Shown here: positions 3,187-44,513 of the stretch, piece after piece | How positions within the stretch are numbered: the first letter of the stretch is position 1 | Layout of the letters: each line of letters starts with the position of its first letter | DNA from: Nitrospirota bacterium | Lineage (GTDB): Bacteria; Nitrospirota; JACRHJ01 | DNA: 64,000 bases | Direction of reading: 5' to 3' | NCBI GenBank assembly: GCA_963733375.1 | Contig: CAVTDB010000026.1 | Span: 160,001 to 224,000 of the forward strand | Translations under genes and position numbers: made by a program | The notes under the pieces: model-generated | Seen by the model: only the letters and a program-made list of their open reading frames with translations | Told to the model about the DNA's origin: nothing | Databases searched by the model: none

Positions 3187-3513
3187 CTATTTTACCGACC
3201 TGATGTACATGACGAGCGAGTCCATCCTCGCGGAATTTTCCGGCAGAGGCTTGCCCTTCAAATTTCCCTCTATGCAGCCGTTAATTACATTTTTAAGGCT
3301 GGCGTCATCCGGGTGTTTGGCGGCGTCTTTCTTGATGTTCTCATCCGTGTTATGGCAGGACGCGCATGATTTTCCATTCGTTCCGAGGGATGGGTCGTTG
3401 AAAAGCTTCTTTCCAACCGCGACGGAAGGCGGATTATCTGCATAAGCCACATATGACCCGTGACAAAACGCGATAACGGCCAATGCAGCCCAGACAAGCG
3501 AGATATGTTTCAT
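3187..3513 (-). CDS. Periplasmic monoheme cytochrome c
   Basis: Signal peptide, GKKLFNDPSLG, single CASCH heme motif. Confidence 0.8.
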   Translation of the reverse strand: MKHISLVWAALAVIAFCHGSYVAYADNPPSVAVGKKLFNDPSLGTNGKSCASCHNTDENIKKDAAKHPDDASLKNVINGCIEGNLKGKPLPENSARMDSLVMYIRSVK

Positions 3514-5598: not shown

Positions 5599-6392
5599 AA
5601 TATCTTCATAATTTTCGAAACGAATAGAACCGTCACCGCATATCTGATTAGATCATAACTACCACCAAACCCCAAAGTATGAATAGCATCAAAGTATTAT
5701 TTGCATAATTATATTTTATGCTTCTATTTTCGCCTGGTAAATTTGGGTCATATATCAATATTTCCCCTGAAGGGCCATTCACCCATAGGCAAGGACGGAA
5801 TGAGTATCACGTTGATTACTATCTTTGTGTCCAATAATATAAACACGGGATTTTGTGTGTCTTTAATATTTTTATATATTAAATTGAAAGTATCTTATCG
5901 TCTAACTTGTTGATTATCATCAAAAGGTTCTGAAGGTACGAAACCATCTGCTGAATTGAAGTTTCTGCCTTATAGAATTAAATCTTGCCAGTAAGCGCTG
6001 TTCATCACGTTAGCCACTATATTCATATAATTAGGGGTAAATGCCAAGGTTGCCTTTTTGCTCATAAAATACCATAATGAGAAAGAAGTCATTCCGAAAC
6101 ATTATTGGACGGGTAAGCGTTATTATTTTTTTGAATCCATCGTCCGCTGGATGATATTTGTAGGACATTTCATAACCGTAATTCGTAGGCGATTTCATTC
6201 CATGTGTAAGACGCTGAAATGTATCTGTAAATGTGTGGGCTACCGGTCATATTTATTAACTGGACAGGGCGTAGAATTGCCTTGATGTCACGTATATGGC
6301 GCGTACATTGTTCCCGTCATCGGCAAATGGTACCGTTACCTGTACAGGCTGATCAACTGATATACTACCGGAACATTAATATAAAGAAGTTT

Positions 6393-7478
6393 GGGCGGCA
6401 CGCGCGGAAAAGCGCCAGACGCGACAGGAGACCAGGCGGACGGCGCGCCGGGGGAACCAGACGGCGACGGCGGCCGCGCGGCCACGCCGGAAAGCGGGAC
6501 GGGGGCACCGGACAAGCCGACGCGAAGCAACGAGCGCCCAAGAGGAGCGGGAAAGAGCAGCCGCGGAGGAGCAAGAGGGAGAGGAGGGACAAAGACAGCC
6601 GGGAGCAAGAAGAGAGAGCAGCGGAGCCGCCCCAGGGAAGGAAGCCGGGCGAAAAGGCAGCGGGCCCGCGGCGAACACACCACCCGGCCGCGGACAGAAA
6701 GACGGCCGAAGCGCGGCCGCACGCAAACGGAGAGACAAAACGGGGCCAAGCGCCGGCAGCCACAGAGCACCCACGGCCAGCGGCACAACGACGCGCAACA
6801 GAAGGACACGCCAGCGGCCCGCGACAAAGGAACGACCCCAGAACGGGGGGGGAAGGACGGAACGCCAGGGCAGGCGCGCCCGACAAACGACCCGGCACCA
6901 AGCCGCCCCCAGCGCAGAGGGCGACCGGCAGGCCGCGGACGAAAAAGGCGCGACCGCAGGCCGGCAAGCGAAAAAACAAAAGGAAAAAACACGCCCGGCA
7001 GAACGGGCGCGGACCAACACGCCCCAGGACAGCGAAACACACGAAGGCCGAAAGAAACCAGCCGGCCGCACCAGCGGAAACCAACACCGGGCCGACCGAC
7101 AACAGCAGCGCAGGCAAGGGCCGGGAAGGCGGGCGACGAGCACGCGCGAACCCGCACCGACGCACGCGAGGACGCCAGCGCCCACGGGGCCAGCGCCGGG
7201 CCGGGCCCAGGCCCACGGCCCCACGCCGACACCAGACAGGCCAGGGCACGGCAAGACCAGAACAACAACGAACAAGAGGAAAGCGGAGAAACAAAACAAC
7301 AAGACAAAGACCAACACAGAAAAGCAAAAAGCGGGCACAGGGCAGGGAGGAAGAAGAAAGGAGGAAAAAGAAGAAAGAAAGAAGGGGAGGAAAAAGAAAA
7401 AAGAAAAAAAAGAGAGGGGAAAAAAAGAAAAAAAAAAAAAAAAGAGAAAAAAAAAAGGGAAAAAAAGAAAAGAAAAAA
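6393..7478. other. T-free low-complexity tract (~1.09 kb), probable basecalling/assembly artefact
   Basis: No T seen on the + strand across the span; grades into pure A/G homopolymer runs at 7350-7478. Confidence 0.8.
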
Positions 7479-7519
7479 TTCATGGACAACCCTGTCAACC
7501 GAAGTTATAATGGCACGTT

Positions 7520-8890
7520 ATGTATTTATCTATTCCAAGACTCACGATATCAGCCCCGCACCGGAGCTCCGGCAAAAGCACCGTCACTATCGGCCTGTGC
7601 GCCGCGCTTTCGGCAAGGGGCCTGAAAGTGCAGCCGTTCAAGAAAGGCCCGGATTTCATAGACCCCATGTGGCACGAGGCCGCGACGGGCAGGCCGTCAT
7701 ATAACCTTGATTTTTTTATGATGGGCCCTGAAAAGATAGAAAAAAGCTTCCAAAAACGTGCGAAAGGCGCCGATATATCCATAATAGAGGGCAACATGGG
7801 CCTCTATGACGGGATAGATATAGAGGGATCGGACTCCACGGCGGGCTTGGCAAGGCTCCTTAAATCGCCCGTCATCCTGGTGGTCGACTGCTCCGGCATG
7901 ACCAGGGGTATTGCCCCGCTGGTCAACGGGTTCTGCAAATTCGAGCCGGAGACTAACGTCGCCGGGATTATCCTTAATAAGGTAAAAGGTTCAAGGCATG
8001 AAAAGAAGCTCCGGGAGGCTGTAGAGCGTTTTTGCGGAGTGCCGGTGCTTGGTGCGCTGCCGCACCAGGAGGAAATGGGCATCAGAATGCGCCACCTCGG
8101 ACTTGTTCCCCTGAAGGAAGAGGAAGGGCTCCTGCCGGTGGTTACGGAGATGCAGAAGGTCATAACCGAAAATCTGGACCTTGATAGGGTAATCGACATA
8201 GCCTCTTCCGCCCAATCCCTTGAGGAACTTCCGCAGGAGGATATATTAATTCCGGAGCCGGTGGTCCGTATAGGGGTGGCGATGGATAGGGCGTTTACCT
8301 TCTATTATCCGGAGAATTTAGAAGGGCTGCGGGCGGCCGGTGCGGAATTGGTTCCCTTTTCACCGCTTGAGGACAAGGACCTGCCTGCGGTGGACGCGCT
8401 ATATATAGGAGGGGGGTTCCCTGAAGTTCATATGGAAGCCCTGGAAAAAAACGCCTCTATGCGGAAAGCGGTAAAGGATGCCGCAGAGGGGGGTATGCCT
8501 GTTTACGCCGAGTGCGGGGGGTTGATGTACCTTTGCGGCAGCCTTGTCTGGGAGGGGCTGATGTGCCGGATGGCGGAGGTTTTTCCCTGCGCCATAAGGA
8601 TGTCGAAGCGGCCCATGGGCCACGGCTACGTCCTGCTCCGTCCGACGGCGGAGGGCTCCTGGCCCGTCTTTGCCGAAGAGATAAGGGCGCACGAGTTCCA
8701 TCACTCCAGTATTGACAGGGCGGGTGAGGATATAAAATTCGCTTTTCAGGTCCTTAGGGGCAGGGGAGTGGACGGCAGCCATGACGGGATGGTCTATAAA
8801 AATGTCCTGGCGGCGTATACGCACATACATTCCCTTGGGACGCCGGGGTGGGCCCCGTCTTTCGTGCAGTTCGTAAAAAGCATATGTTAA
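7520..8890 (+). CDS. dsrN: Cobyrinate a,c-diamide synthase-like siroheme amidase DsrN
   Basis: SSGKST P-loop, FKKGPDFIDP, EGNMGLYDG, YAECGGLMYL glutaminase motif, HEFH; directly upstream of dsrC. Confidence 0.88.
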   Translation: MYLSIPRLTISAPHRSSGKSTVTIGLCAALSARGLKVQPFKKGPDFIDPMWHEAATGRPSYNLDFFMMGPEKIEKSFQKRAKGADISIIEGNMGLYDGIDIEGSDSTAGLARLLKSPVILVVDCSGMTRGIAPLVNGFCKFEPETNVAGIILNKVKGSRHEKKLREAVERFCGVPVLGALPHQEEMGIRMRHLGLVPLKEEEGLLPVVTEMQKVITENLDLDRVIDIASSAQSLEELPQEDILIPEPVVRIGVAMDRAFTFYYPENLEGLRAAGAELVPFSPLEDKDLPAVDALYIGGGFPEVHMEALEKNASMRKAVKDAAEGGMPVYAECGGLMYLCGSLVWEGLMCRMAEVFPCAIRMSKRPMGHGYVLLRPTAEGSWPVFAEEIRAHEFHHSSIDRAGEDIKFAFQVLRGRGVDGSHDGMVYKNVLAAYTHIHSLGTPGWAPSFVQFVKSIC

Positions 8891-8952
8891 AACCTATTAA
8901 TTAAAATTATAATGACTTTAAAATTATCTATATAGTCACTTTTCAAAAAAGC

Positions 8953-8982
8953 TTGACAAACGCGCTTTGACGGACTTATAGT
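8953..8982 (+). promoter_or_regulatory. Putative sigma70 promoter of the dsrCMK operon
   Basis: TTGACA-18 nt-TATAGT in the AT-rich dsrN-dsrC intergenic region. Confidence 0.5.
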
Positions 8983-9191
8983 ATCACTGAAAATAAACAG
9001 CGTTTTAAAATTAACCCTTAAGTAGTATAACCTTCGGCAATAAAACGCAAAGTTTATAATTTCCCGTCTGTCCATTCAGGCTCAATTAAGGTCTGAAAAC
9101 AAGATAGAATGACCAAGTATTTTAAAGAATCACAGGTGTCGATGGGGCGTCTGTGGGTGACAGGGTAACTCTCTAACAGGAGGTAAGTAAG

Positions 9192-9527
9192 ATGCCGAAT
9201 ATCGAATTTAAGGGCAGATCCTATGAAGTGGACGAGGACGGGTATCTCATTAACCTGGACGACTGGAACGAAGATGTCGCGGGTTATTTAGCGGAGCAGG
9301 AAGAAGTCGAGATGACCCCCGCCCACTGGGAAGTGGTCAACTTCCTCAGGGATTACTACGCCGAATACAAAATAGCCCCGATGATCAAGATCTTGGTCAA
9401 GGCCCTGGGCGCGAAACTCGGACCGGAGAAGGGCAACACGAAGTACCTTTACGAGCTCTATCCGGCCGGACCCGCGAAGCAGGCTTGCAAGATCGCAGGG
9501 CTTCCCAAACCGACCGGCTGCGTATAA
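9192..9527 (+). CDS. dsrC: Sulfur carrier DsrC
   Basis: VDEDGYL...HWEVVNFLRDYY; C-terminal GPAKQACKIAGLPKPTGCV with both conserved Cys; SD GGAGG. Confidence 0.97.
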   Translation: MPNIEFKGRSYEVDEDGYLINLDDWNEDVAGYLAEQEEVEMTPAHWEVVNFLRDYYAEYKIAPMIKILVKALGAKLGPEKGNTKYLYELYPAGPAKQACKIAGLPKPTGCV

Positions 9528-9549
9528 GGCAATCGGAAACGTTCCCCTG

Positions 9550-9579
9550 TCCCGTCCCGCCTGAAAAGGCGGGACGGGA
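9550..9579 (+). promoter_or_regulatory. GC-rich 13-bp stem with GAAA loop between dsrC and dsrM
   Basis: tcccgtcccgcct-gaaa-aggcgggacggga, no U-tract. Confidence 0.6.
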
Positions 9580-9612
9580 TAAGCGTCAACCGGTCTGGAA
9601 GGAAGGATATCG

Positions 9613-10344
9613 ATGGAATTCTCTCTTATTACGGTAATCTTTTCCCTGATGGCCTATGGAGCGGCGGCCATTTTTATCTTCGGCCTTCTCTCGAAGATAA
9701 TAAATTACGCCAGAACCCCATCCCCGCTTATAATCCCTACGACCCCGGCCCCCACGACTTCTTTCGGCGCGATGGTCCGGGTCCTGAGTGAGGTATTTCT
9801 GTTCAGGAGCCTTTACAAGGGCAACAAATGGACATGGGTAGGCGGCGTGGTCTTCCACTGGGCCTTCCTGTTCGTGATACTCCGGCACCTCCGTTATTTC
9901 TTCTTTCCCGTGCCAGCCTGGGTTATGGGACTCCAGAATATAGGCATCTATGCCGGGATAATCCTTCCCATAGGCGTGCTGTACCTGCTGATGAGGCGCA
10001 CCACGGTAGACAGGACAGTTTTCATTTCATCCCTGGCGGATTATTTCGCGCTTGCCCTTATTTTCTTTATCGCCGGGACCGGCCTCATTATGAAATACTA
10101 TGAGCGGCCGTTCATGGTGGACATAAAAGGCTTCGTGTACGGCCTTATGACCTTTAATCTCTCTACCATGCCGCTGGACCCGCTCTTCCTCGTACACTTC
10201 ACCCTGGTGCTGATGCTGCTTGCGTACTTCCCGTACAGCAAGCTGGTGCACGCGGCAGGAATATTCTTCAGCCCGACGAGGAACCAGGCGGACAACCCGA
10301 GGGAGAAAAGGCATGTAACCCCCTGGTCGCCGAACCTTACTTAA
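9613..10344 (+). CDS. dsrM: DsrM membrane diheme cytochrome b (NarI-like)
   Basis: YARTPSPLIIPTTPAPTT, FHW...RHLRYF, HFTLV...FPYSKLVH; short 243 aa form. Confidence 0.93.
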   Translation: MEFSLITVIFSLMAYGAAAIFIFGLLSKIINYARTPSPLIIPTTPAPTTSFGAMVRVLSEVFLFRSLYKGNKWTWVGGVVFHWAFLFVILRHLRYFFFPVPAWVMGLQNIGIYAGIILPIGVLYLLMRRTTVDRTVFISSLADYFALALIFFIAGTGLIMKYYERPFMVDIKGFVYGLMTFNLSTMPLDPLFLVHFTLVLMLLAYFPYSKLVHAAGIFFSPTRNQADNPREKRHVTPWSPNLT

Positions 10345-10356
10345 GGAGATTTCAAA

Positions 10357-11860
10357 TTGGCTAAAGTAAAGTTTGAGGCCCCGGAATTAACCGGTGAGTT
10401 AACGATACCCGGCCTGAAAGAAGACGCCGCCGCATCCGCCCAAAGCCAACATGCGCCGGTAAAGGATATGATCGACCTGGGCTTCCCCACGGAGCTTGTT
10501 CCGGATTGGCAGGAGAAGGCGATCGCCAAGTTCGACGAGCTTCTCAAGAAGTACCGCTCACTGAAGGTCTTCCTGGATATCTGCGTCAAATGCGGCGCAT
10601 GCACTGACAAGTGTCAGTTCTACCTTGGCACTAAAGACCCGAAGAACATGCCGGTGGCGAGGGCGGAGCTCCTCCGCAAGGTTTACCGCCGCTACTTTAC
10701 GACTGCGGGAAAAGTGCTGGGCAAACTGTCCGAGGCAGATGACCTGACCAAGGAAGTGCTGGACGAGTGGTATACCTACTTCCACCAGTGTTCTGAGTGC
10801 AGGCGCTGTTCGGTATTTTGTCCTTACGGCATCGATACAGCGGAGGTAACCATGGCCGCGAGGGAGATCATGGACACCGTAGGCTACGGTGCAAAATATC
10901 CCCTCCAGACCATCAACAAGGCCATCACCGTAGGCAACAACCTCGGCATGCCCGGCCCTGCTATCCAGAGCACGCTGGACTTTATGGCTGAAGAAGTACT
11001 GGAACAGACCGGCGTTCCGGTGAAATTTCCGATGGACGTAAAGGGCGCGGACGTATTGCTTGTAACTCCCTCGGCGGATTTCTTCGCCAGTCCGCACGTA
11101 GAGTCGCTTGCCGGATATGCAAAGGTATTTCATCAGGCGGGTATAAGCTGGACGCTCTCGTCGTATGCGTCCGAGGCCGGCAACTTCGGCATGTTCAACG
11201 GCAACTATGAGCATATGCGCAAGATAGCCGCCAGAATCAAGGTGGCCATAAATGAATTAAAGCCAAAGAGGCTTATACACGGCGAATGCGGTCATGCATG
11301 GCGCGTAGCCTACAGCTTCTGGAACACGCTCATCGGGCCGTTTGATACGCTCGACCCGAAATACCCCGCCCCGCAGCACATCTGCGATTTCACGAACGAC
11401 CTGATTAAGAGGGGAGCCTTGAAGCTGGACAAGACGGCAAACGACCAGTTCGTCGTCACCTTCCACGACTCCTGCAACGTCGCCAGGGCCACCCGGATAG
11501 GCAGCTATGCCGGCAGCCAGTTCGAGATACCCAGGGAAATAATAAGGGCGACCTGCAACAAGTTCGTGGACATGCGCGCCGGACACCATACGCGAGAGGA
11601 CATTCTGCTGCGGCGCCGGCGGCGGGCTCCTCGCGGACGAGATTATGGATCTTCGTCTAAAAGGGGCGATGCCGAGGATGCAGGCGTACAAGGAAATCAA
11701 GGACAAGGACGGCGCGAATTTCTTTGCCCTCATCTGCGCCATATGCAAGGCGCAGTTCACCAAGGTCTTCCCGTACTACGGATACGATATGGAAGAGGTC
11801 GGCGGTATACACCAGCTCGTGGGCCGCGCGATAGTGTTGGGCGGGAAGGAGGGGATATAA
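10357..11860 (+). CDS. dsrK: DsrK (HdrD-like Fe-S protein); single frameshift near 11580
   Basis: CVKCGACTDKC, CSECRRCSVFCP, GECGHAWR, FHDSCN; continues in another frame as TFCCGAGGG...ICAICK to the stop at 11860. Confidence 0.95.
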
Positions 11861-12166
11861 ATGAAAAAATCGATCTTGGCCGTGCTGTTCATATCCCTCC
11901 TGGCAATGGTAGCCGTCGGCTGTTCGAACAAGCGGGTGACGAAGCCCGAGCTTAAGGGTACGGGGCCGCTGGCACTTAAACTTCCCGCGGGAATACTCTC
12001 CCCGGAATACCACCAGCCGGTCGATTTCTGGAAACAGCATCACATGGACATCCTTAAAAGGGGCGACTACAGCAAGCACGAGTGCATGCTCTGTCACGAC
12101 GCGGACACCTCGTGCAACAACTGCCATGAATATGTGGGCGTCGCAAAGGTCGAAGGATACGAATAA
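11861..12166 (+). CDS. Small diheme cytochrome c lipoprotein
   Basis: Lipobox AVG-C; two CxxCH motifs (CMLCH, CNNCH); ATG immediately follows the dsrK stop. Confidence 0.8.
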   Translation: MKKSILAVLFISLLAMVAVGCSNKRVTKPELKGTGPLALKLPAGILSPEYHQPVDFWKQHHMDILKRGDYSKHECMLCHDADTSCNNCHEYVGVAKVEGYE

Positions 12167-12183
12167 TAGGGGAGCCCAATACG

Positions 12184-12669
12184 ATGGAAGAGAAGAAAGA
12201 TACGGCTCAAGCGGGCGCCGCACCGGCGCCTGAGGAACATCACGGCGGAAAATTCATGGCCGGAAGGCGCGCCTTTCTGGGCGTTTTCGCCGGATGCATA
12301 GGCGCTCTGGGCGCCGGGCTCGTCGGTGTCCCGCTCCTGGCGTCGTTTACGCCGGTCCAGAGGGGCAAGCCGGAGCCCGCGGTAATGAACCTGGGGGACA
12401 TACCTCTGGGTGGTTACGCGCAGGGTGTTTATGCCGGATACTCGTTCCTGGTATTTAACAGGAAGACCGGAATCGAGTGCATATCCTTGAAATGCTCTCA
12501 TCTGGGCTGCACCGTCAAATGGGTCGAGGCGGAGAAGAAGTTCAAATGCCCGTGCCATGACGGCACGTTCGACGAGCACGGGATAAATAAGAGCGGCCCT
12601 CCACCAGTGCCGCTCGATAAGCTGGATTATAAAATCGCCGGCGACAAACTAATAGTCGGAGGTGCATAG
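12184..12669 (+). CDS. petC: Rieske [2Fe-2S] protein of a Rieske/cytochrome b complex
   Basis: Tat motif RRAFL plus TM helix; CSHLGC and CPCHDGTF boxes; GPPPVPL. Confidence 0.92.
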   Translation: MEEKKDTAQAGAAPAPEEHHGGKFMAGRRAFLGVFAGCIGALGAGLVGVPLLASFTPVQRGKPEPAVMNLGDIPLGGYAQGVYAGYSFLVFNRKTGIECISLKCSHLGCTVKWVEAEKKFKCPCHDGTFDEHGINKSGPPPVPLDKLDYKIAGDKLIVGGA

Positions 12670-12670
12670 G

Positions 12671-13327
12671 ATGAGCAAGGTGATTGATTGGGTTGATTCC
12701 CGAACGGGGGTCTCCGAACTGCTGGACGACGAGGTATTTTCCAAAAAGGCTCCGAGGCTCGCGAAGTGGTACGAGTTCTTCGGCTGTTTTGGGGGGATGT
12801 CGCTTATACTCTTCATAATCCAGGTGCTATCAGGTACCTTCCTCCTGATCTACTATACGCCTTCTCCAGCGGATGCTTTCTCCAGCGTCGTCTTCATCGA
12901 CAACGGCGTCTACTTCGGCTGGCTCTTCAGGCGTCTGCACGCGGTCGGCGCGAATGTGATGATCCTCCTGGTGATGATACACATGCTCAAGGTTATAATC
13001 ACCGGGGCGTACAAGGCTCCCAGGGAGTTTCACTGGATATCCGGCTTCGTCCTTCTGATGCTCACGCTGATGATGGGCATCTCCGGTTATCTCCTGCCCT
13101 GGACCCAGCTCTCGTACTGGGCGGTCACCGTGCTCACGACCTCGTTCTCGGTCGTCCCCGTTCTCGGGCCCACAATGATGAAGGTTATACGCGGAGCTGA
13201 TACCGTCTCTGGACCGACCTTGGGCAGGTTCTACGCCCTGCACCTGGCGCTCCCGGTGGTCATGTCGCTCTTCTTGGCTTTCCATTTCATGATGATAAGA
13301 AGGTCTGGTATCCAGGAGCAGTTATAA
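12671..13327 (+). CDS. petB: Cytochrome b6-like (split cytochrome b, N-terminal subunit)
   Basis: CFGG, RRLH...IHM, GAYKAPREFHWISG, GYLLPWTQLSYWA, RFYALH...FHFMMIRR; four heme-ligand His. Confidence 0.93.
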   Translation: MSKVIDWVDSRTGVSELLDDEVFSKKAPRLAKWYEFFGCFGGMSLILFIIQVLSGTFLLIYYTPSPADAFSSVVFIDNGVYFGWLFRRLHAVGANVMILLVMIHMLKVIITGAYKAPREFHWISGFVLLMLTLMMGISGYLLPWTQLSYWAVTVLTTSFSVVPVLGPTMMKVIRGADTVSGPTLGRFYALHLALPVVMSLFLAFHFMMIRRSGIQEQL

Positions 13328-13342
13328 GGAGAGGATGGGAGA

Positions 13343-13775
13343 ATGAAATACAACAAAGACAACTGGAAGGGCGAGCTCGAACCTTTCTGGCCGCACGATG
13401 TCATCGACAAGGGGTTAATAGCCTGCATCGTAATAGGCATCTTCTTCGCGATAGCCTTCTTCATGCCGGACCTCTTCCTTCCGCCCCATGAAATGCCGGC
13501 GGACTCGACGAACACGCCTCTGGCCGTGAAACCTGAATGGTACTTCCTGGCGGCTTACCAGACGCTGAAGCTATTCCCGACGAAAATTTTTCGGGGGCGC
13601 TGCCGAGCTGATGGGGATGGGCGTGCAGGTAATAGCCATCACGGGTCTCTTCCTCCTGCCGTTTCTAGACAGGGGCAGCGAGAAGAGGTGGAAGATGCGG
13701 CCCACGTTCCAAAAGGGAGTCATAGCCGGGGTAATAGTATTCGTAGGCCTGACCATTTGGGGCCACTTATCTTAA
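13343..13775 (+). CDS. petD: Cytochrome b subunit IV (PetD/QcrC-like); frameshift near 13590
   Basis: PFWPH, TPLAVKPEWYFL (Qo-site PEWY); the shifted frame continues ...LLPFLDRGSEK...GLTIWGHLS*. Confidence 0.88.
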
Positions 13776-13797
13776 TTTTGCACGGAAGGAGCAACCA

Positions 13798-14334
13798 GTG
13801 ACAGGGAGAGTAAGAGGACTTCTTTTCGTAGCGGCTCTCGCCGTACTTCTCACTCCCGCTTTCGCGGCGGCGAAGGACAACTACTGCGGAGAGTGCCATA
13901 CCGCAAGAGAGATTGCGTCCTTCGGGAGTCTGACGAGGTGGGACAGGAGCATATACCAGCAGAAGGACACGCTCTGCCCGGGGCTCTTTGAGATTAAGAA
14001 AGAGCAGTACTTCACGGAGAGCAGGCTCCTGAAGTACGACAACTTCCTCACCGTGATGGAAGAGCAGACGCGGAGATACCCGGAATATTTAAAAGAGGAC
14101 CTGGTTAAATACGGAGTGCAGTACGCGGATCTGAAAAGCCAGAATGTAGATTCGATAGATGCATTCGCGGTACCGAACTTGAAGATCAAAAAGAACCTGG
14201 GGGGGGTGTACGAGACCTTCAACAAGCTCCGTGAAGACTACAAAATGGAAAAAGTGATCGGACTGGGGCTGCTGGCGGTAGTCATTATCTCCCTGCTCTT
14301 CTTCATGGGGCTCAAGAAAACCGTAAAGGAATAA
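13798..14334 (+). CDS. Membrane-anchored monoheme cytochrome c
   Basis: Signal peptide, N-terminal CGECH, C-terminal TM helix. Confidence 0.7.
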   Translation: MTGRVRGLLFVAALAVLLTPAFAAAKDNYCGECHTAREIASFGSLTRWDRSIYQQKDTLCPGLFEIKKEQYFTESRLLKYDNFLTVMEEQTRRYPEYLKEDLVKYGVQYADLKSQNVDSIDAFAVPNLKIKKNLGGVYETFNKLREDYKMEKVIGLGLLAVVIISLLFFMGLKKTVKE

Positions 14335-14347
14335 CGAGGTCTAAAGG

Positions 14348-16136
14348 ATGCTCAAAAGAATATTCGCAATAACATGTGCTGTTGCACTTCTGGCAGTCCT
14401 TGCCTCCTGCAATGAGAAGGAAGGCAAATCAGTAGACCCCAAGGTGGTAGCGGCCGCCGTCGAAAAGGCGGGTAAGACCGCCGACGCTCTGGACAACACG
14501 AACCTGAAGGCTTATGAGCTTGGAAGGCTTGGAGCCGCGATGGCGGAGCAAGGCGTACCCGGCGCGTCCGAGACCCTTGACGAAGCCCTGAAGCTGGCAA
14601 CGGGCGTGCGGGCGCCGTCGAACCTGGCGCTGGCGACAGAGCTTCGCGACCAGTCGAAGGACTGGGGGCCGAAGGACCGTGAAGCCATCGATCCCGCACT
14701 GGAAAGAATTACCAACGACTCCACCCGCGTCTGGGTAATCCGCTCCATAGCGGAAGGCATTGCAAAGTCAGACCGGGCGAAGGCCGTTGGAATTCTGGCA
14801 CAGGCCGCAAAAGATGCGCAAACCATCCCTAACCCGAGATATCGCGACCTGGACCTCCGGGGAATATCAGCGGCGCTCGCCGAGCTTGATTTTTCGGCCG
14901 GGATGGGCGTGGCCGCGAATATCTCCGACCCGAGGGTCAGGTCCTGGGCTTTAATGGAAGCGGGGAAGGCGGCAAAGGCCAATGGCTCAAAGGACGCAGC
15001 CCAGGCGTTTACGGCCGCTGGCGACGCGGCGGAGGCGGTTTTGAAGATGGAGCCTTCGAGTGAGCTGATAACCGATGCGACTCCTGCGGACGTGAAGGCG
15101 AAAGTCCTCGCTGCGGATAAGGGGAGGCTCGAGGCATATGCGGCCAGGGCAATGGCCAACGCCGCCCTTGCGATGAAAGATTACGACCCGGCAAAAGTCG
15201 TCGGCGATGTTCGCCAAGGCGGAGGAAATCGCCGATTCGATAGAGCAGCCGTACACCAAGTCATACGCGATGAGCGACGTCGCTATAGCGCTTGCCGGAT
15301 CGAACGCGACCGAAGCGGACGCCTATGCCTCCAAGATTGCGGCGGGCCATGAAGACGCGAAGTTCGCGGCGATGATGAAGTCCGGGGCCTCGGAAACCGA
15401 CAAATGCCGCGCCGGCTGCGATTCCGGCGAGATGGCCAAGGCTGTCAGTGTCGCGGAATCCATATCCGATCCCTACGACAGGGCGAAGGCGCTGGAGCTT
15501 ACGGCAACCGCCCTGGCGGCCTGTGACCCGAAGCAGGCCGAGGAAATTGCGGGGAAGATGGAGTATGTCGCGCTTAAAAATTCGGTATTGGCATCCCTTG
15601 CGGTCGCGGCCTCAAAAGGGGGAGATGAGCAGTTTAAAAAGGCCCTCGATAAGATAGATGAGCCGAGGTTCGCCAAGGATGAGGCGGTTTACGCCAAAGC
15701 CTGCGCGCTGGTCGGCGCCGCCGAAATAAAGGCGAAGACGGAACCAGCCGCCGCCGTAAAGATCTACGGGAAGGCCGCCACGGCAGCGGCCGATGCAAAA
15801 AGCCAGGCGCTCCAGTGGAAGATAGCGGTGGAACTTTGCAGGCTGGACCCGGACAAGCTTGTGAATTATGCCGCAAAGCTCGAAGGGGACGACGCTACCA
15901 AGGCAGCCGCTCTCACCGAGGTCGCGGCGGATTGGTCGGCTAAGGGCGATTACCGTTCTCCCATGGTCTGGGACATGGCGGTGAAGTCCGCGATGGCAGT
16001 GGATGACAAGACCGCTTCGGCGGAGCTTCTGAGCAAGATCGCTTCGTCCTGCGCGAAATATGATAAGGCCAGGGCCGCAGCCATATTCAGCAAAGCCCTT
16101 GAGAAGGCCGGGAAAATAGGCGTAGTCCAGAGTTGA
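14348..16136 (+). CDS. Large Ala-rich helical-repeat lipoprotein (~595 aa; frameshift near 15200)
   Basis: Lipobox LAS-C; repeated A..I.DP..R..AL helical motifs; two overlapping ORFs with the same composition and codon usage. Confidence 0.65.
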
Positions 16137-16164
16137 CGGCAAGAACCTTAAGAGGAGGAACTCA

Positions 16165-16521
16165 ATGAAAATAGGCGTAATGATACAGGAAGGCCCGTAC
16201 AACCACGAGGCCTCCGACACCGCCTACAATTTTATCGAAGCGGCAATGGCGAAAGGCCATTCCATCCAGGGTGTTTTCTTGTATGACGACGCAGTAACGA
16301 ACGTCGCCAAAAGCATGGAGCCGCCCATGGATGACAGGCATATAGCCAGGAGATGGTCGGAATTGGGAGCGAAAGGCGTGGATATAATAGTCTGCGTAGC
16401 GGCGGCCAAGAGGCGCGGCATAAGCCCAAGCCTTATCGTGGACAATACCAGGATTTCCGGCCTGGGCCAGCTTAGCGAGATATGCACCGAAGCTGAGCGC
16501 GTCGTCACCTTCGGCGACTGA
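16165..16521 (+). CDS. dsrE: Sulfurtransferase DsrE
   Basis: EGPYNHEASDTAYNF, PPMDDRHI, active-site VCVAAAKRRG, ISGLGQL. Confidence 0.95.
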   Translation: MKIGVMIQEGPYNHEASDTAYNFIEAAMAKGHSIQGVFLYDDAVTNVAKSMEPPMDDRHIARRWSELGAKGVDIIVCVAAAKRRGISPSLIVDNTRISGLGQLSEICTEAERVVTFGD

Positions 16522-16538
16522 GGAAAGGAGACTCAAAA

Positions 16539-16895
16539 GTGGCAAAGATAATGTTCGTAAACAGAAATGCACCCCACGGGACGATATATGCCTGGGAGGG
16601 TCTCGAGGTCATCCTTATCTTCGGCGCGTATGAAAACGAACTCGCTGCGGTATATATGGACGACGGCGTATTCTGCCTGAAGAAGGGCCAGGATACCTCC
16701 GGAATAGGCATAAAAGGGTTTATCAAGACCCTTCCGGTGCTCGAAGATTACGGCTGCGAAAAGATATACGTCGATAAGGAATCGATGGAGAAAAGGGGCC
16801 TGACGCCGGACGATTTCGCGATACCGGTTGAGGTGATGGATTCGGCGGGGATCGGGAAGGTTATGGCGGAGCAGGACGTTATCCTGCCGTTTTAG
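16539..16895 (+). CDS. dsrF: DsrF
   Basis: MFVNRNAPHGTIYAWEGLEV, MDDGVFCLKKGQDT. Confidence 0.95.
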   Translation: MAKIMFVNRNAPHGTIYAWEGLEVILIFGAYENELAAVYMDDGVFCLKKGQDTSGIGIKGFIKTLPVLEDYGCEKIYVDKESMEKRGLTPDDFAIPVEVMDSAGIGKVMAEQDVILPF

Positions 16896-16911
16896 ATAAG
16901 GAGGAGCAACC

Positions 16912-17205
16912 GTGCTTCATATAGTAAATAAATCTCCGTACATGAAGGGTAGTCTGGAGAGCTGCATAAGGGTCGCGCAGAAGGACGACCCGATCCTGCT
17001 GATTGAAGACGCCGTACTCGGCGTCGCCGCCGGCGGAGGCATTGAGAGCCTGATTCAGGGCGCGATGAAAGATCATCAGATCTATGCCCTGGGCGCGGAC
17101 CTCCTGGCGAGAGGCATAGACGGCCTGACTCCTGGCGTGAAGGTGGTGGACTACGGCGGGTTTGTCGAGCTTGTCGAACAGCACAGGACGATGACCTGGC
17201 TTTAA
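16912..17205 (+). CDS. dsrH: DsrH
   Basis: MLHIVNKSPY...LESC, LLIEDAV, DLLARG, VDYGGFVEL. Confidence 0.95.
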   Translation: MLHIVNKSPYMKGSLESCIRVAQKDDPILLIEDAVLGVAAGGGIESLIQGAMKDHQIYALGADLLARGIDGLTPGVKVVDYGGFVELVEQHRTMTWL

Positions 17206-17879
17206 TGAGTATGGACAGGAACATCCTGTCGGACCTTCTGCTTGCGCGAAAATATCGGGAAGCGATGGACCTGATAAAAAAAAGACATAGCCGTTTAAGG
17301 ATCCTCCTGGGCCTTTTGTATTCCGAGGAAGAGCTGGTCAGGTGGAGGGCCGTGACATTGCTGGGGCTGATTGCCGCCGACGGCGAAACCGACCTGGCCC
17401 CGGCGGTGAAGAAGCTGCTGTGGTTTCTTAACGAAGAATCCAGCACGGTCGGCTGGTGTTCCGCGCAGGCTATCGCCGAGATATACAGAAATAATCCGGG
17501 CATGGCCAGGGACGCGATACGGGTCGTGCTCCACCTGTCGGACGATCCGGAGATATCTCTGCCCGCCAACAGGAACACTCCTATACTCGCGGGGTCCATC
17601 TGGGCCATCGGGATACTGGCGGAAGACGAGCCGGCGCTTGTCTCGGAGATGGGTCCGGCGCTGACGGAATTTTTAAAAGACCCCGACCCCTCGATAAGGG
17701 GCTTTTCCGCATGGGCCCTGGGCAGAATGGGTTTCCAGGAGGCGGAAGAAGGACTCAGGGCGCTTGCCCATGATGACTCATTCGTTAATCTTTACGAGGA
17801 TGATTCACTTAAAAATATTACTGTAGCGCGCGCCGCAGGAGACGCGCTTGAGAATATTCAGAAAAAAAACGGAGAATGA
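17205..17879 (+). CDS. HEAT-repeat protein (DVU0298-like)
   Basis: [37 protein letters not shown]; TAATG overlap with dsrH. Confidence 0.7.
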
Positions 17880-17953
17880 AGGAGGTGAGGAAAGCCAGGC
17901 CGGCTTTAGATTTTAGAGGTCTATTTTATACACCAGAAAAGGAGAAAGTACTG

Positions 17954-19138
17954 ATGTCTGATACCCCATTGATTGACCAGCTTGAAACCGGCCCATGGCC
18001 GAGCTTCATCAGCGACATTAAAAGGATGGCCAAAACGAATGCCATGTGCAAGGACCTTCTGGGGCTCCTCGAAATGTCCTACAAGGACAAGAGGACGCAC
18101 TGGAAACACGGCGGCATAGTCGGTGTCCGCGGCTACGGCGGCGGCATCATAGGCCGCTATTCCGATTCTCCGGAGATGTTCCCGAACGTATCCCACTTCC
18201 ACACCGTCCGCGTCAACCAGCCGGCCGGGTGGTTCTACAACACGTCTTCTCTCCGTTACCTCTGCGACCTCTGGGAGAAGCACGGCTCGGGCCTCACGAA
18301 CATGCACGGCTCGACCGGCGACATGGTCATGCTCGGCACCACCACCGAACACCTTGAGGACATCTTCACCGACCTCTCGGAGCATGGCTGGGATCTGGGC
18401 GGCTCCGGCTCGGACGTCCGCACCCCGTCCTGCTGCAACGGCATGGCCCGCTGCGAGTACGCCTGCATCGATACCATGAACATATGCCACGACATAACGA
18501 ACGAGTACCAGGACGAGCTTCACAGGCCGGCCTTCCCGTACAAGTTCAAGTTCAAATTCTCGGGTTGCCCGAACGACTGCGTCGCATCCATCGCGCGTTC
18601 CGACTGCTCCGTCATCGGCACCTGGAGGGACGCCATCCAGCAGGACGACGCCGCCGTGGCCGAGTACGCCAAGGGCGGAAAAATCGACATAGCGAACGAC
18701 GTCGTCGGGAAATGCCCCACGGGCTGCATGTCCTGGGACGGCTCGAAGCTCTCGATAGACAACTCCAACTGCAACCGCTGCATGCACTGCATAAACCTCA
18801 TGCCGAAGGCGCTCCGCCCCGGCAAGGACAAGGGCGCGATGGTACTGCTTGGCGCGAAGGCCCCGATCGTCCAGGGCGCGCTGCTCGCATCCGTTGTAGT
18901 GCCGTTTATAAAGATGGAAGCCCCTTACACCGAGTTCAAGGAGCTTATCGCGAAGATATGGGAAGTATGGGACGAGCACGGCGAGAGCAGGGAGCGCATA
19001 GGCGAGATGATCGTGCGCATAGGCAAGGGCAACTTCATCGAAGAGGTAGGCCTGGAGCCGGTCCCGTCCATGATAAAGGAGCCGAGGTCCAACCCCTACA
19101 TCTTCTACGAAGAGTTCTTTGAAGAAGAAGAGGCGTAG
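17954..19138 (+). CDS. dsrA: Dissimilatory sulfite reductase alpha subunit (reductive bacterial-type signature)
   Basis: [51 protein letters not shown]...GCPNDC; start at ATG 17954 after an AAGGAG SD. Confidence 0.98.
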
Positions 19139-19220
19139 GCGGGAGGTTCATCCGGGTTGTTGTGGTAGTTTAATATAAATAAACTGATGAATAAATAAAT
19201 CAGACGGAGGGATTAAGAAA

Positions 19221-20297
19221 ATGGCAGCTCCGAAGAGAAAGACAGACATAGGGCCACCCCATTACGAACAGATGCTCCACCCGACGGTGAAGGCCAATTA
19301 CGGAAAATGGAAGTACCATGAGAATATCAAGCCGGGCGTCCTCATGCACGTCTCCGAGACCGGCGACAAGATCTACACCGTCAGGGGCGCGTCCTCGAGG
19401 CTTATCAGCATCGAGAAGATAAGGGATTACTGCAACCTGGCCGACAAGTACTGCGACGGCTACTTAAGGTTCACAAGCCGCAACAACGTCGAGTTCCTGA
19501 CCGAAAAGGAAGCCAACGTCCAGCCGCTGATCGACGAGATGAACAAGCAGGGCATCCCCGTCGGCGGCACCGGCAACAGCATATCCAACATCGTCCATAC
19601 CCAGGGCTGGGTACATTGCCACAGCTCCGCGACGGACGCCTCCGGCGTGGTCAAGGCCACGATGGACGAGCTGATGGACTACTTCACGTCCATGACCCTG
19701 CCCGCGCATTTAAGGATAGCGGTCGCCTGCTGCCTGAACATGTGCGGCGCCGTCCACTGCTCGGACATCTCGATCCTCGGCATACACAGGACCCCGCCGA
19801 CCATCGACCACTCCAAGCTCGGCAACATGTGCGAGATACCGTCAACCGTCGCCTCCTGCCCGAAGGCCGCCATACGCCCGAAGATGGTCGATGGCAAGCA
19901 GTCGGTCGAGGTCATCGAAGACCTCTGCATGTACTGCGGCAACTGCTACACGGTCTGCCCGGCGATGCCGATAGCCAACCCGCTTAACGACGGCATCTCG
20001 ATATGGGTCGGCGGCAAGGTCTCGAACTCCAGGCACGAGCCGATGTTCTCGAAGCTCGCGATACCGTACCTCCCGAACAACCCGCCGCGCTGGCCGGAAG
20101 TCACCTCAGCGGTAAAGAACATCGTCGAGACCTACGCCGGTGACGCGAAGAAGTACGAGAGGGTCGGCGAGTGGATAAACAGGATAGGCTGGCAGAAGTT
20201 CTTCGAGAAGACCGGCCTCGAGTTCACGAAGTACCACATTGACGACTTTACCCTGGCGTCCAGCACGTACAATTCCTCTACACATGTCAAATTTTAG
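19221..20297 (+). CDS. dsrB: Dissimilatory sulfite reductase beta subunit
   Basis: [59 protein letters not shown]. Confidence 0.98.
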
Positions 20298-20303
20298 GGG
20301 GGT

Positions 20304-20555
20304 ATGATCATGGCGTCCATAGAAGAGATCAAAGACTACATATTCCACAAAGTGGAGTCTTACGCTGGCAAGAAGCAGGTGAAGGTGCCGATTCTCAGCC
20401 AGGAAGTGATCGAACATTTCGGCGAGGCCGAATGCTCGAAGAAGGACGTGAAGCAAGCCCTGAAGGAGCTTATAGACGACGAGAAACTCGTATATGGCTA
20501 CTTCGGCGGCACTACACTCGAAATACCGCACACAGAAGGAAGCGCGAACGCGTAA
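20304..20555 (+). CDS. dsrD: DsrD
   Basis: ~80 aa winged-helix-like ORF directly after dsrB; KQALKELIDDEKLVYGYFGGT. Confidence 0.82.
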   Translation: MIMASIEEIKDYIFHKVESYAGKKQVKVPILSQEVIEHFGEAECSKKDVKQALKELIDDEKLVYGYFGGTTLEIPHTEGSANA

Positions 20556-20568
20556 ACGGAGATGAACA

Positions 20569-22246
20569 ATGGCGTTAGTTAAGAAGAAAAAGAAGGATTA
20601 CGGCGCAAAATCCGGCTCCGACTCAGACCTCTACCCTGAGGCCTAAGTACCAGCCGAAAACGCCGCCGTGCACGTTCAAATGCCCGTCGGGAGTTGACGT
20701 CAGGGGCTATGTGATGCACATCAGCCAGTCCGAGATGTACGGCAGGACGGTTGAGCAGTCGATTAACGAGGCATGGTACATGCTGACGGACAAGAACCCG
20801 CTCCCGGCGACGACGGGAAGGGTATGTCCGCACCCCTGCGAGAGCGAATGCAACAGGGGGGGCATAGAGGGCCCGCTCAACATCAACAACATTGAGCGGT
20901 TCATGGGAGATTTCGGAATAAAGAACGCCCTCCCGCTCAAGAAGATGACCGATGAAAAAAAGGCCGAGAACGTTGCGGTAGTCGGCTCCGGACCGGCAGG
21001 CCTTTCCTGCGCCTATCAGTTAGCCAGGCGCGGCTACGGTGTGACTATCTATGAATCCTTCGAAAAGGCAGGCGGAATGCTGCGCTACGGCATACCGGCC
21101 TACAGGCTGCCGGAGGATGTGCTGGATGCCGAGATCAAGAAAATCCTTGACCTGGGCGTACAGCTTAAGCTGAATACGAAGGTAGGCAAGGACGTCCCAT
21201 TCGATGAACTCCGGAAATCCAACAGCGTCGTATTCATGGGCATAGGCGCCCACGCTGGAAAGAAGCTCGGAGTCCCCGGAGAAGACGCGGCGAACGTGAT
21301 GACCGGCGCGGAGTTCCTCCACAAGGTCAATAGCGGCGAAAAGGTCGAGATAGGGGACAAGGTCATAGTAATCGGCGGCGGCAACAGCGCCATCGATGCA
21401 GCCAGGGTCGCAGTCAGGCTCGGCGCTGACGTTACTCTATCCTACCGCAGGACCCGCGCGGAGATGCCCGCCATCGAGCACGAGATCCATTCCGCGGAAG
21501 AGGAAGGGGTCAAGTTCGAGTACCTTACCGCCCCCGTCGAGGTGGTTGTAAAGGACGGCAAGGCTGCGGGCCTGAAGCTCCAGAGGATGGAGCTTGGCGA
21601 GCCGGACGCATCCGGCAGGCGCAGGCCTGTCCCGGTCGCGGGTTCCGAGTTCGTGGTGGACGCGACATTTGTCTGTCCGTCCATCAGCCAGGAGCCTGAG
21701 TTCGACGGCCTGGATACGCTGAAGAACGAGAAGGGCTGGATATCGGCGGACGCTGGCGGGAAGACCGCGGCCGAAGGCGTATTCGCGGCCGGCGACGTGA
21801 CCAACCAGCTCGGTCTGGTGACTGAGGCCATAGGCCTTGGCAGGAAAGCGGCGGAAGCCATCGACGACTTCATCCAGAAGAAGGAGAAGCCGGAAGTGGC
21901 CCCGCTGGCGGTAATCCGCTATCAGAACATGTACCGCGACTTCTTCCCGAAGAAGGAGAGGACTTCCACGAAGTTCCTCTCGGCGGCCGAGGTAAAGGGG
22001 AGCATGACGAAAGAGCCCATGCTGCCTCTCTCGGACGAAGAGTTCAAGGAAGAAGTATCCCGCTGCATGAGCTGCGGGCTCTGCTTCGACTGCGACAACT
22101 GCTGGATGTACTGCTCGGACGGCGCCGTGCAAAAGACGTCGAAGGACCTGCCGCGAGGCACGCATTACGAGTTCATCCTGGAGAAGTGCCAGGGTTGCAA
22201 GAAATGCGCTGAAGCCTGTCCCTGCGGCTACATAGACATGTTATAA
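20569..22246 (+). CDS. dsrL: DsrL (DsrL-2 type NAD(P)H:acceptor Fe-S flavoprotein); frameshift near 20625
   Basis: LRPKYQPKTPPC..KCPSG, GRVCPHPCESECNR, GSGPAG, GGGNSAID, YRRT, RCMSCGLCFDCDNCWMYC, CQGCKKCAEACPCG. Confidence 0.92.
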
Positions 22247-22264
22247 AAATGTTCTGTTTCGTCT

Positions 22265-22308
22265 CCCGGGGGGCCGCCCGTCCAAGGGGGCCCTCCGGGT
22301 TGTTTTTT
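22265..22308 (+). terminator. Probable intrinsic terminator after dsrL
   Basis: cccgggggggcc...ggccctccggg stem followed by ttgtttttt. Confidence 0.55.
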
Positions 22309-22330
22309 AAGGGCATATCAGGAGATCTGA

Positions 22331-22801
22331 ATGGAAGATATTACGCTGAGAGAGATCATCGACTACGCCAGGATAAACGAGGAAAACTCCAAGCGCTTCT
22401 ATTCCGAAGCCGCGGAAAAGTCCACAGTGGAGAACGTCCGGGCTTTCCTGACGCACCTGGCGAAGGAAGAGCAGAAGCACATCGACCATTTAAACGATCT
22501 GGATAAGACGGTCGATAAGGGCGGAGCGATACCGAAGCCGCATGAGGTGGCGAAGCCGCTGGGATATGCCGAGTTCGTCGGCAATGTAAGGCTGGACGAC
22601 ACGGCGAGCTATCAGGACGTGCTCAAGGCGGCTATGGCTAAGGAGAAAGAGGCGCTGGAGTCTTACAAGAAGTACGCCGCTCTGTCTGACGACCCGAAGG
22701 CGAAGGAGCTGTTCCTTTTCCTGGCGGCCGAAGAGAGCGTGCACTTGAGGGGCTTCGAGGAGAAGTATGATGATTTCATGAGAGAGATCGAAAACAACTA
22801 A
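22331..22801 (+). CDS. Ferritin-like/rubrerythrin-family di-iron protein
   Basis: Duplicated E..FY...LAKEEQKH and EKEA...LAAEESVH di-iron motifs. Confidence 0.85.
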   Translation: MEDITLREIIDYARINEENSKRFYSEAAEKSTVENVRAFLTHLAKEEQKHIDHLNDLDKTVDKGGAIPKPHEVAKPLGYAEFVGNVRLDDTASYQDVLKAAMAKEKEALESYKKYAALSDDPKAKELFLFLAAEESVHLRGFEEKYDDFMREIENN

Positions 22802-26057: not shown

Positions 26058-26408
26058 ATGCCATCGCTAAAATATGAAGGCGGTACCGTAGAGCTGGACA
26101 AAAATGGCTACCTGACTAACATTAACGCCTGGAACGAGGCCGTAGCGGAAGCTATCGCGAAGCGGGAAGGCATTAAAAAGCTGACCGAAGACCGCCTGGA
26201 AGTAATCAGGTTCCTCAGAAGTTATTACATGAAATTCAACTCTTTCCCGCTGCTCGATATGGTATGCACCAACGTGCACCAGCCAAAAAACTGCACGTCG
26301 AAGCCGTTCAAGATGGACCCGCTGAAGGCATGGAAGGTGGCGGGGCTGCCATATCCGGGTGAAGAAGTCCTGGTATATCTCCAGGGGCCGCTTCATCCCG
26401 AAGAATAG
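26058..26408 (+). CDS. DsrC/TusE-family protein lacking the C-terminal cysteines (RspA-like)
   Basis: LDKNGYL...WNEAVA...FLRSYY fold; the arm reads AWKVAGLPYP with no CysA/CysB. Confidence 0.8.
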   Translation: MPSLKYEGGTVELDKNGYLTNINAWNEAVAEAIAKREGIKKLTEDRLEVIRFLRSYYMKFNSFPLLDMVCTNVHQPKNCTSKPFKMDPLKAWKVAGLPYPGEEVLVYLQGPLHPEE

Positions 26409-29874: not shown

Positions 29875-29886
29875 GTACGCCTCCCT

Positions 29887-31483: not shown

Positions 31484-31484
31484 A

Positions 31485-44497: not shown

Positions 44498-44513
44498 GCC
44501 TTAAGGAGAGGCG

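Follow-up and report, generated by a model that had tools for sequence, protein, structure and literature searches.

In the DsrMKJOP complex of Archaeoglobus fulgidus, as described from its cryo-electron microscopy structure (bioRxiv 10.64898/2026.08.25.746951; this and the other papers given here by identifier are cited from excerpts), DsrP is the site of quinol oxidation, from which electrons go to DsrO, then to DsrJ, DsrM and finally DsrK. Biochemical work on DsrMKJOP is available from Desulfovibrio and Allochromatium. DsrJ rests on DsrM, where it relays the electrons from DsrO, and one of its hemes gets a histidine ligand from DsrO. The quinol site of DsrM in DsrMKJOP is blocked by two arginines and a loop insert at transmembrane helix 3 (TMH3), and DsrM of systems that have DsrMK only looks NarI-like (same preprint). 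Here we describe a dsr cluster in a 64,000-nucleotide stretch of DNA, called the window throughout (contig CAVTDB010000026.1, positions 160,001 to 224,000), from a metagenome-assembled genome (MAG) of a Nitrospirota bacterium. In this cluster dsrM and dsrK are followed by a gene for a two-heme DsrJ homolog, which we call J', and then by genes for a Rieske protein, cytochrome b6, subunit IV, a 178-residue monoheme cytochrome c (p178) and a lipoprotein, so that the Rieske/b6 genes take up the place usually held by dsrO and dsrP. This arrangement is conserved across five genera of a Nitrospirota class in which DsrOP has been lost class-wide, and the Rieske/b6 module may have replaced DsrOP as the quinone interface.

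The architecture has been noted once before, in another phylum. The dsr operon of Candidatus (Ca.) Tariuqbacter arcticus (Electryoneota) contains petBCD, while neither DsrO nor DsrP was detected in this organism, two other Electryoneota MAGs are said to have 'cytochrome b6f instead of dsrJOP', and that 2023 paper likewise takes Rieske/b6f as a substitute in electron transfer (PMC10439189). An earlier sequence-only reading of the window knew of no described dsr operon of this kind, and the view that none is described is not supported. The present locus resembles the Electryoneota ones in that Rieske/b6 genes are in the dsr operon and dsrO and dsrP were not detected, but it belongs to a different phylum, and in the two sentences of PMC10439189 on the subject no DsrJ-like or p178-like protein is named. 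In cable bacteria dsrTMKJ is separate from a dsrOhPh-tetrahaem locus (PMC13047784), there are arguments that this OP-like module forms a complex of its own (PMC13047784; bioRxiv 10.64898/2026.08.25.746951), and the partner which the cable-bacteria DsrMKJ requires is left open (bioRxiv 10.64898/2026.08.25.746951). The window shares with cable bacteria a DsrMKJ without adjacent OP, a split also seen in the Nitrospirota genomes G013, G105, G261 and G240; unlike in cable bacteria, the class of the window has no DsrP-like gene at the cut-off and has Rieske/b6 genes inserted in the operon. The mixed dsrD/dsrEFH/dsrL repertoire of some Nitrospirota has been called 'transitionary' (PMC11406059). Neither Rieske nor cytochrome b is mentioned in the main texts of Zecchin 2018, Diao 2023, Neukirchen 2023 and the 2026 DsrEFH paper, and the papers found by full-text search for Rieske proteins with DsrMK did not describe the present arrangement. 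What is new here is the two-heme DsrJ family, the p178 and lipoprotein partners with their fusions, the class-wide loss of DsrOP, and the split state of dsrMKJ' with distal dsrOP in other Nitrospirota.

The dsr cluster of the window

The listing of open reading frames (ORFs) together with Pfam and NCBIfam scans showed one same-strand cluster from dsrN to dsrL, in the order dsrN, dsrC, dsrM, dsrK, J', Rieske, b6, subunit IV, p178, lipoprotein, dsrEFH, HEAT-repeat protein and dsrABDL, with the following parts (lengths in amino acids, aa; Tat, twin-arginine translocation).

7520-8890 (+): dsrN
8953..8982 (+): promoter-like site TTGACA-18-TATAGT (11/12) ahead of dsrC, a consensus match only
9192..9527 (+): dsrC (PF04358, 159 bits; TIGR03342, 166 bits)
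9613..10344 (+): dsrM, short type, 243 aa (NF038037, 187 bits; cut-off 300)
10357..11860 (+): dsrK (NF045796, 461 bits for the N-terminal part; cut-off 400)
11861..12166 (+): J', 101-aa diheme cytochrome c with CMLCH and CNNCH, probable lipoprotein (Cys21)
12184..12669 (+): Rieske [2Fe-2S] protein with Tat signal, CSHLGC and CPCH (PF00355, TIGR01416)
12662..13327 (+): cytochrome b6, 221 aa (PF00033, 181 bits)
13343..13775 (+): subunit IV with PEWY
13798..14334 (+): p178, 178-aa monoheme cytochrome c (CGECH) with signal peptide and C-terminal membrane anchor
14348..16136 (+): large Ala-rich helical-repeat lipoprotein, 592 aa in the relative L013
16165..17205 (+): dsrE, dsrF and dsrH (TIGR03012, TIGR03010 and TIGR03011, all over cut-off)
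17205..17879 (+): DVU0298-family HEAT-repeat protein (NF045662, 146 bits)
17876..22246 (+): dsrA, dsrB, a dsrD-position ORF and dsrL (TIGR02064, 585 bits; TIGR02066, 523 bits; PRK12771, 554 bits)

The name dsrD is given by position and size (83-aa ORF) only. From dsrM to dsrH the intergenic distances are -8 to 28 nucleotides (nt), the gap between dsrK and J' being 0 nt and the overlap of the Rieske and b6 genes 8 nt, and the site ahead of dsrC is the sole strong promoter-like one within 8800-22400. The gene content, the order, the single strand and the tight spacing were thus as the sequence-only reading had given them, and it was also right that dsrO and dsrP are not in the window and that the Rieske/b6 genes occupy their usual place. 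Contigs from RNA libraries (soil metatranscriptomes, 90-99 % identity) cover parts of dsrC, dsrM, dsrK, J', the lipoprotein gene, dsrE, dsrF and dsrH, and one such contig bridges the junction of b6 and subunit IV; two of the three RNA runs seem to contain identical data. These contigs hint at expression and are no proof of a single transcript.

The window is on a contig of 497 kb in a MAG of 2.39 Mb and 26 contigs that is 81 % complete and 5.2 % contaminated. The ORFs as first read had the correct content, but three of them are frameshifted in this assembly, each by a single 1-nt switch of frame: dsrK at ~11575-11579, just before the CCG motif, subunit IV at ~13582-13591 in a T5/G5 run, and the lipoprotein gene at ~15195. 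Among short-read relatives the three genes are intact, being single ORFs of 500, 143 and 592 aa, respectively, in L013, and short-read contigs of strains that are 90-99 % similar have one base fewer at 11579 and 13582/13589, in homopolymer runs. Because of these intact ORFs and the missing bases, the three breaks are most likely single-base insertion errors of long reads at homopolymers and not pseudogenes. Numerous comparable frame breaks occur across the rest of the genome. When dsrK is read across the frameshift the CCG motif is regained as in L013.

DsrM of the window is a diheme NarI-type cytochrome whose best match is NF038037 at 187 bits, below the cut-off of 300, and its four heme histidines, H82, H92, H195 and H213, are invariant in alignment A4. 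In the same alignment this short DsrM is without the inserts present in DsrM of Nitrospirota that have DsrMKJOP, and a PDB sequence search with it found NarI alone, weakly (E 0.007). DsrK is of the HdrD-like Fe-S/CCG type by its NF045796 score, which is over the cut-off. The Rieske protein has the CxHxGC and CxCH motifs behind its Tat signal. Over its full length cytochrome b6 can be aligned to its plastid and cyanobacterial counterparts (6rqf, 2zt9) at ~40 % identity, the four heme histidines and the heme-ci cysteine being conserved, and together with the PEWY-bearing subunit IV it makes up a split cytochrome b. There is no cytochrome f or c1, as p178 has no Pfam or NCBIfam family and shares with these proteins the topology only (one heme and a C-terminal anchor). 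Thus, the module is like b6f or the Firmicutes-type b6c complex in its split b6 and subunit IV, heme-ci Cys, PEWY and Tat-exported Rieske protein, and unlike them in its c-type partner, which is p178, and in its dsr gene context. When the whole locus is compared to DsrMKJOP, it is alike in DsrC, a diheme DsrM, a CCG/FeS DsrK, a DsrJ homolog after dsrK, and, encoded next, a membrane module that oxidises quinol and has a periplasmic Fe-S protein, whereas it differs in having no DsrO or DsrP, two hemes and not three in J', a short DsrM, and a quinol module that is a Rieske/b6 complex with a Qo and a Qi site.

J', p178 and the lipoprotein

The window had been read as having no dsrJ, and this did not hold. 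J', which is encoded directly after dsrK, aligns over the whole protein with true DsrJ of DsrMKJOP-bearing Nitrospirota (MAFFT), and when profiles of 9 J' and 6 DsrJ sequences were compared hhalign gave a probability of 96.9 % with E 1.4e-10 over 70 columns. By these alignments the diheme lipoprotein is a DsrJ homolog in shortened form with two hemes, which retains the first two CXXCH motifs of DsrJ and is without the third, C-terminal one and without an internal stretch of ~18 residues. The invariant heme-ligand Cys of DsrJ is replaced by Tyr50/His51 in J', the two alignments being one column apart here, and His51 and His61 are invariant in all 17 J' sequences. J' thus is not a triheme cytochrome with a His/Cys heme as DsrJ is, and no match to it was obtained with the NCBIfam DsrJ model NF038038 when the window proteins and the own genome were scanned. 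A search of a collection of 5.8 billion proteins with the J' profile gave 53 clusters, of which each named one is a Nitrospirota 'hypothetical protein'. J' was found in 27 of the 401 sampled genomes of the phylum, and in seven of the nine J' loci fetched from outside the class it stands directly after dsrC-dsrM-dsrK with no Rieske/b6. J' in tandem duplicate, as a protein of 172-226 aa with two J'-like domains, was seen directly after dsrK in 9/9 genomes of family f18 and in G249 (loci L052, L053 and L054 in G261, G249 and G105, respectively), and source names for these proteins include Ca. Magnetomonas and Ca. Magnetominusculus.

The p178 protein is more restricted, being present in 12 of the 401 genomes, only in the class of the window and in family f20, and its 53 clusters in the large protein collection are all Nitrospirota hypotheticals. 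It is absent from the many other Rieske/cytochrome b loci of the phylum, where 38 of the 41 genomes of the first sample have some cytochrome b. Cys60 (in TLCPG), Lys56 and Tyr138 are invariant in 11/11 p178 sequences, and no Met or His other than the CXXCH histidine is invariant; a His/Cys-ligated heme in p178 is conceivable. The lipoprotein has no Pfam or NCBIfam family, and atlas look-ups with p178 and the lipoprotein gave low-score leads only, to generic multiheme c and TPR-like clusters. Prediction of a complex of p178 (24-152), J' (22-101) and three hemes gave scores of 0.00 and 0.00, the mark being 0.32, a result that carries no weight on either side of the question of binding.

In family f20 two loci encode, in this order, a DsrM-like cytochrome b, J' and homologs of p178 and of the lipoprotein:

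L050 6528-9870 (G183): stand-alone module
L055 7838-10978 (G117): stand-alone module

This DsrM-like cytochrome b has no DsrK partner and is without the second histidine of transmembrane helix 5, so that it is likely to hold a single heme. In G117 the four proteins are fused in pairs, DsrM-like with J' and p178 with the lipoprotein, as proteins of 274 and 771 aa, respectively. Since outside the class p178 and the lipoprotein were found only with J' and a DsrM-like cytochrome b, sometimes fused, these gene contexts indicate that J', p178 and the lipoprotein belong with DsrM-type cytochromes. Therefore, in the window the genes for Rieske, b6 and subunit IV lie inside a DsrM-J'-p178-lipoprotein unit. 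The f20 module of G183 adjoins cytochrome bd oxidase genes. ORFs of 510 aa and 367 aa beside the f20 module were rejected, as they look like spurious opposite-strand frames.

Conservation in the class, loss of DsrOP and origin of the module

The class of the window is a deep-branching Nitrospirota group of soil and peat that is identical in extent to its one order and family, and it was represented by 12 species genomes of 6 genera. The order dsrK-J'-Rieske-b6 was present in all seven related genome loci found with b6, four of which span dsrN to dsrL, and the genome G003 has the arrangement of the window. Among the ten metagenome loci found with J' patterns, J' is next to Rieske in every one, dsrK is upstream in nine and dsrA is reached in three, though some of the loci are probably one contig in two collections (L015 and L039 have identical figures). 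The adjacency thus recurs in other genomes and, as far as each contig extends, in the metagenome loci. Identities of the lipoprotein and of J' fall to 42-59 %, which means that the gene order has been kept over real divergence, and the arrangement is not a chance adjacency. J' was found in 10/12 class genomes, p178 also in 10/12, and a b6 ortholog (at least 81 % identity) in 9/12; of the genomes with misses, G005 is also without DsrK, and in G010 and G011 the contigs stop inside or beside the cluster. The class carries the 'reductive' marker dsrD as well as the 'oxidative' markers dsrEFH and dsrL, and four of its five high-quality genomes have AprA, four of the five have a COX1-type heme-copper oxidase and none of the five has cytochrome bd.

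DsrP and DsrJ models had no match above cut-off in the own genome (81 % complete), and over all 12 species genomes neither the DsrP model nor the DsrJ model reached its cut-off in any. This is class-wide loss of DsrOP. The lone match over cut-off to the DsrO model in the own genome, C25:98079, was rejected as DsrO, as it sits in a B-C-A molybdoenzyme cluster. This ttrBCA-like cluster (L009, G000 C25:96000-102000) consists of an NrfC-like protein, an NrfD-like protein and a Tat molybdopterin subunit behind a NapC/NrfH-like cytochrome, and its molybdopterin subunit is broken by several frameshifts. In J'-bearing genomes of other families, DsrP is over cut-off at a distant locus in G013, G105, G261 and G240, where in G013 it sits with a multiheme cytochrome c and a DsrO-like protein, and G379, also J'-bearing and from another family, has no DsrP over cut-off.

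A maximum-likelihood tree of b6 was made with 70 rows, for which only hits of 200-245 aa were taken and every fifth of the near-identical P0054-P0086. In this tree the dsr-linked b6 clade has a support of 100/99, its sister group has one member labelled Tectomicrobia (100/98), and the next group has members labelled KSB1 (98/95). Since the in-phylum homologs (46-48 % identity) and the own-genome paralogs branch outside the dsr-linked clade, the dsr-linked Rieske/b6 is no recent copy of a resident complex, and lateral acquisition of the module is likely. The own genome has two more cytochrome b loci, L022 and L023 (G000 C2:85473-86729 and C1:94279-96179); one has a Rieske-b6 fusion of 418 aa, and the other has Rieske and a full-length cytochrome b directly after sdhAB and sucCD. 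The closest in-phylum relative of the b6 is in family f2, in a Rieske/b6 operon with ExtKL-like and NrfH-like multiheme cytochromes. In G029 a few genes separate this operon (L019 11942-13798) from the gene for a DsrL-like NAD(P)-binding Fe-S flavoprotein, and in G021 it is beside a Qrc-like complex.

Several other features were noted within and around the cluster. The DVU0298-family HEAT protein, which stands between dsrH and dsrA here, adjoins dsrC in several other Nitrospirota dsr loci (e.g. L029 9379-9996). Just 5' of dsrN, 6231-7500 is ~1.2 kb of purine-rich low-complexity DNA with an AT skew of 0.46 and A/G tracts at 7346-7478, and an Arg/Lys-rich ORF of 464 aa in it, which has no family, is probably not a real gene. 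A few kb 3' of the cluster is a second DsrC/TusE-like gene at 26058-26408 (+) (PF04358, 73 bits). A membrane-bound [NiFe] hydrogenase with small and large subunits and a cytochrome b561-type subunit is encoded at 29251-32549 (-), and a NuoE/NuoF-like pair with a formate dehydrogenase-like molybdopterin oxidoreductase at 42681-47748. An ORF of 108 aa at 3187-3513 (-) matches a SoxA/TsdA cytochrome c domain (PF21342, 33 bits) and is possibly a piece of a larger gene split by an indel.

Possible wiring of DsrMKJ' to the quinone pool

What is observed is the gene content, the homologies, the conservation throughout the lineage, the absence of DsrOP, and the association of DsrM-type cytochromes with J', p178 and the lipoprotein. 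From these observations we infer physical contact, an order of carriers, a direction of flow and energetics as follows. We consider it nearly an even chance that Rieske/b6/IV replaces DsrOP as the quinone interface of DsrMKJ' and is wired to it through periplasmic hemes. In this exchange of modules b6 and subunit IV would stand for DsrP, Rieske and p178 for DsrO, and J' for DsrJ, so that J' and p178 would make a periplasmic heme wire to DsrM. Electrons would then, if the structurally known DsrMKJOP is taken as the model, pass from menaquinol at the Qo site to the Rieske [2Fe-2S] center, to p178, to the two J' hemes, to the two DsrM hemes, to DsrK and to DsrC-bound sulfur, and the path could run backwards too. 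In the reductive direction the Q cycle would release two protons per electron rather than one, and in the oxidative direction J' and p178 would pass electrons from DsrC-bound sulfur into a cytochrome c chain. A further step, which we regard as rather unlikely, would be that DsrMKJ', Rieske/b6/IV, p178 and the lipoprotein form one reversible supercomplex acting as a Q-cycle-coupled DsrC-sulfur oxidoreductase. In such a supercomplex J' would have lost exactly the heme which depends on DsrO, and a low-potential heme in its stead may come from p178, which has one heme and an invariant Cys. In Electryoneota, too, this solution may have emerged or spread independently.

Several points weigh against a replacement of DsrOP by Rieske/b6/IV. 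In menaquinol systems the Rieske center usually has a much more positive potential than the hemes of DsrM and DsrJ, and because of this the reductive flow from Rieske to DsrK may be uphill. DsrMK may also oxidise quinol alone and need no partner, because DsrM here lacks the TMH3-region insert to which blockage of the quinol site is attributed. In G006, which is 97 % complete, the dsr-linked cytochrome b is the only one seen, yet this genome has a heme-copper oxidase, and such a gene set fits the role of an ordinary complex III. The RNA-library contigs cannot demonstrate one transcript, and DNA may contaminate RNA libraries. All 12 class genomes also encode elsewhere a tetraheme-NrfC-NrfD module that could serve J'. 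Finally, the exchange of modules counts as one evolutionary event, confined to one lineage, and the anticorrelation with DsrOP thus has n = 1.

These points lead to the question whether DsrMKJ' and Rieske/b6 are separate complexes that are merely co-regulated, which is a serious possibility although we do not think it probable. In that case DsrMKJ' would use the quinone pool through DsrM, and Rieske/b6/p178 would be an ordinary menaquinol:cytochrome c oxidoreductase, in the operon only for joint expression with the dsr genes, which reoxidises menaquinol from sulfur oxidation (DsrMK, Qmo-Apr) and feeds a heme-copper oxidase or nitric oxide reductase. The distribution of heme-copper oxidase, AprA and cytochrome bd given above, the lone dsr-linked cytochrome b of G006, and dsrEFH and dsrL, hallmarks of oxidation, in the same cluster all agree with this, as do the more positive Rieske centers and a short DsrM that may have a quinol site of its own. 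However, p178 goes with no other Rieske/cytochrome b locus of the phylum and only with J' and DsrM-type proteins, Rieske-b6-IV is inserted between J' and p178 and not appended, and most class genomes have two further cytochrome b loci, of which the one near sdh/suc looks like the housekeeping complex. Improbable, in our judgement, is that the distal tetraheme-NrfC-NrfD module feeds J' as an analogue of the dsrOhPh-tetrahaem locus of cable bacteria, with Rieske/b6 as passengers. This module consists of a membrane-anchored tetraheme cytochrome c (four CXXCH), an NrfC-like and an NrfD-like protein, which are encoded together after a rubrerythrin-like gene (L060 5540-8052 in G006; G000 C25:113367-114922 (-)), and cable bacteria and G013 do have dsrMKJ with a distal OP-like module. 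Its NrfD-like protein gives weak matches to the DsrP model in 12/12 genomes, but at 25-33 bits against a cut-off of 350, and it is only 20 % identical to DsrP of G013; the module coexists with true DsrP in other families and is thus not Dsr-specific, and the OP-like module of cable bacteria is, as mentioned above, argued to be a separate complex.

The sequence-only reading had suggested another route for the reductive direction, in which quinol is bifurcated at Qo. The low-potential electron would pass laterally in the membrane through hemes bL/bH/ci to the DsrM hemes and DsrK, and Rieske and the c cytochromes would carry off the high-potential one. Cytochrome b6 does retain the four heme histidines and the heme-ci cysteine that this would require, and comparable ideas exist for the multiple Rieske/cytochrome b complexes of anammox bacteria. 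Nonetheless this route now seems very improbable, as no feature was found that indicates contact of b6 and DsrM in the membrane or between their b hemes, and it would need a further sink for the high-potential electron. The extra genes encode periplasmic c cytochromes, of which one is a homolog of DsrJ, the protein that wires DsrM from the periplasm, and J' and the monoheme p178 point instead to a periplasmic heme wire, as in the replacement of DsrOP by Rieske/b6/IV proposed above.

How DsrMK-type complexes are linked to the quinone pool, and how much energy is conserved there, is an open point in the field, and the 2026 DsrMKJOP structure paper, in the part cited here, explicitly leaves open which partner DsrMKJ has in the absence of OP. 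A concrete and testable alternative wiring is offered by an entire class of Nitrospirota from peat and soil, in which OP is replaced by Rieske/b6 with three lineage-specific periplasmic proteins around it. If the supercomplex is real, the final step of sulfite reduction would move twice as many protons per electron and, in reverse, electrons from sulfur oxidation would go straight into the cytochrome c chain. The two-heme DsrJ family is annotated as 'hypothetical protein' everywhere, and this affects the automated calls of 'DsrMK only' versus 'DsrMKJOP' that are made in metagenome surveys.

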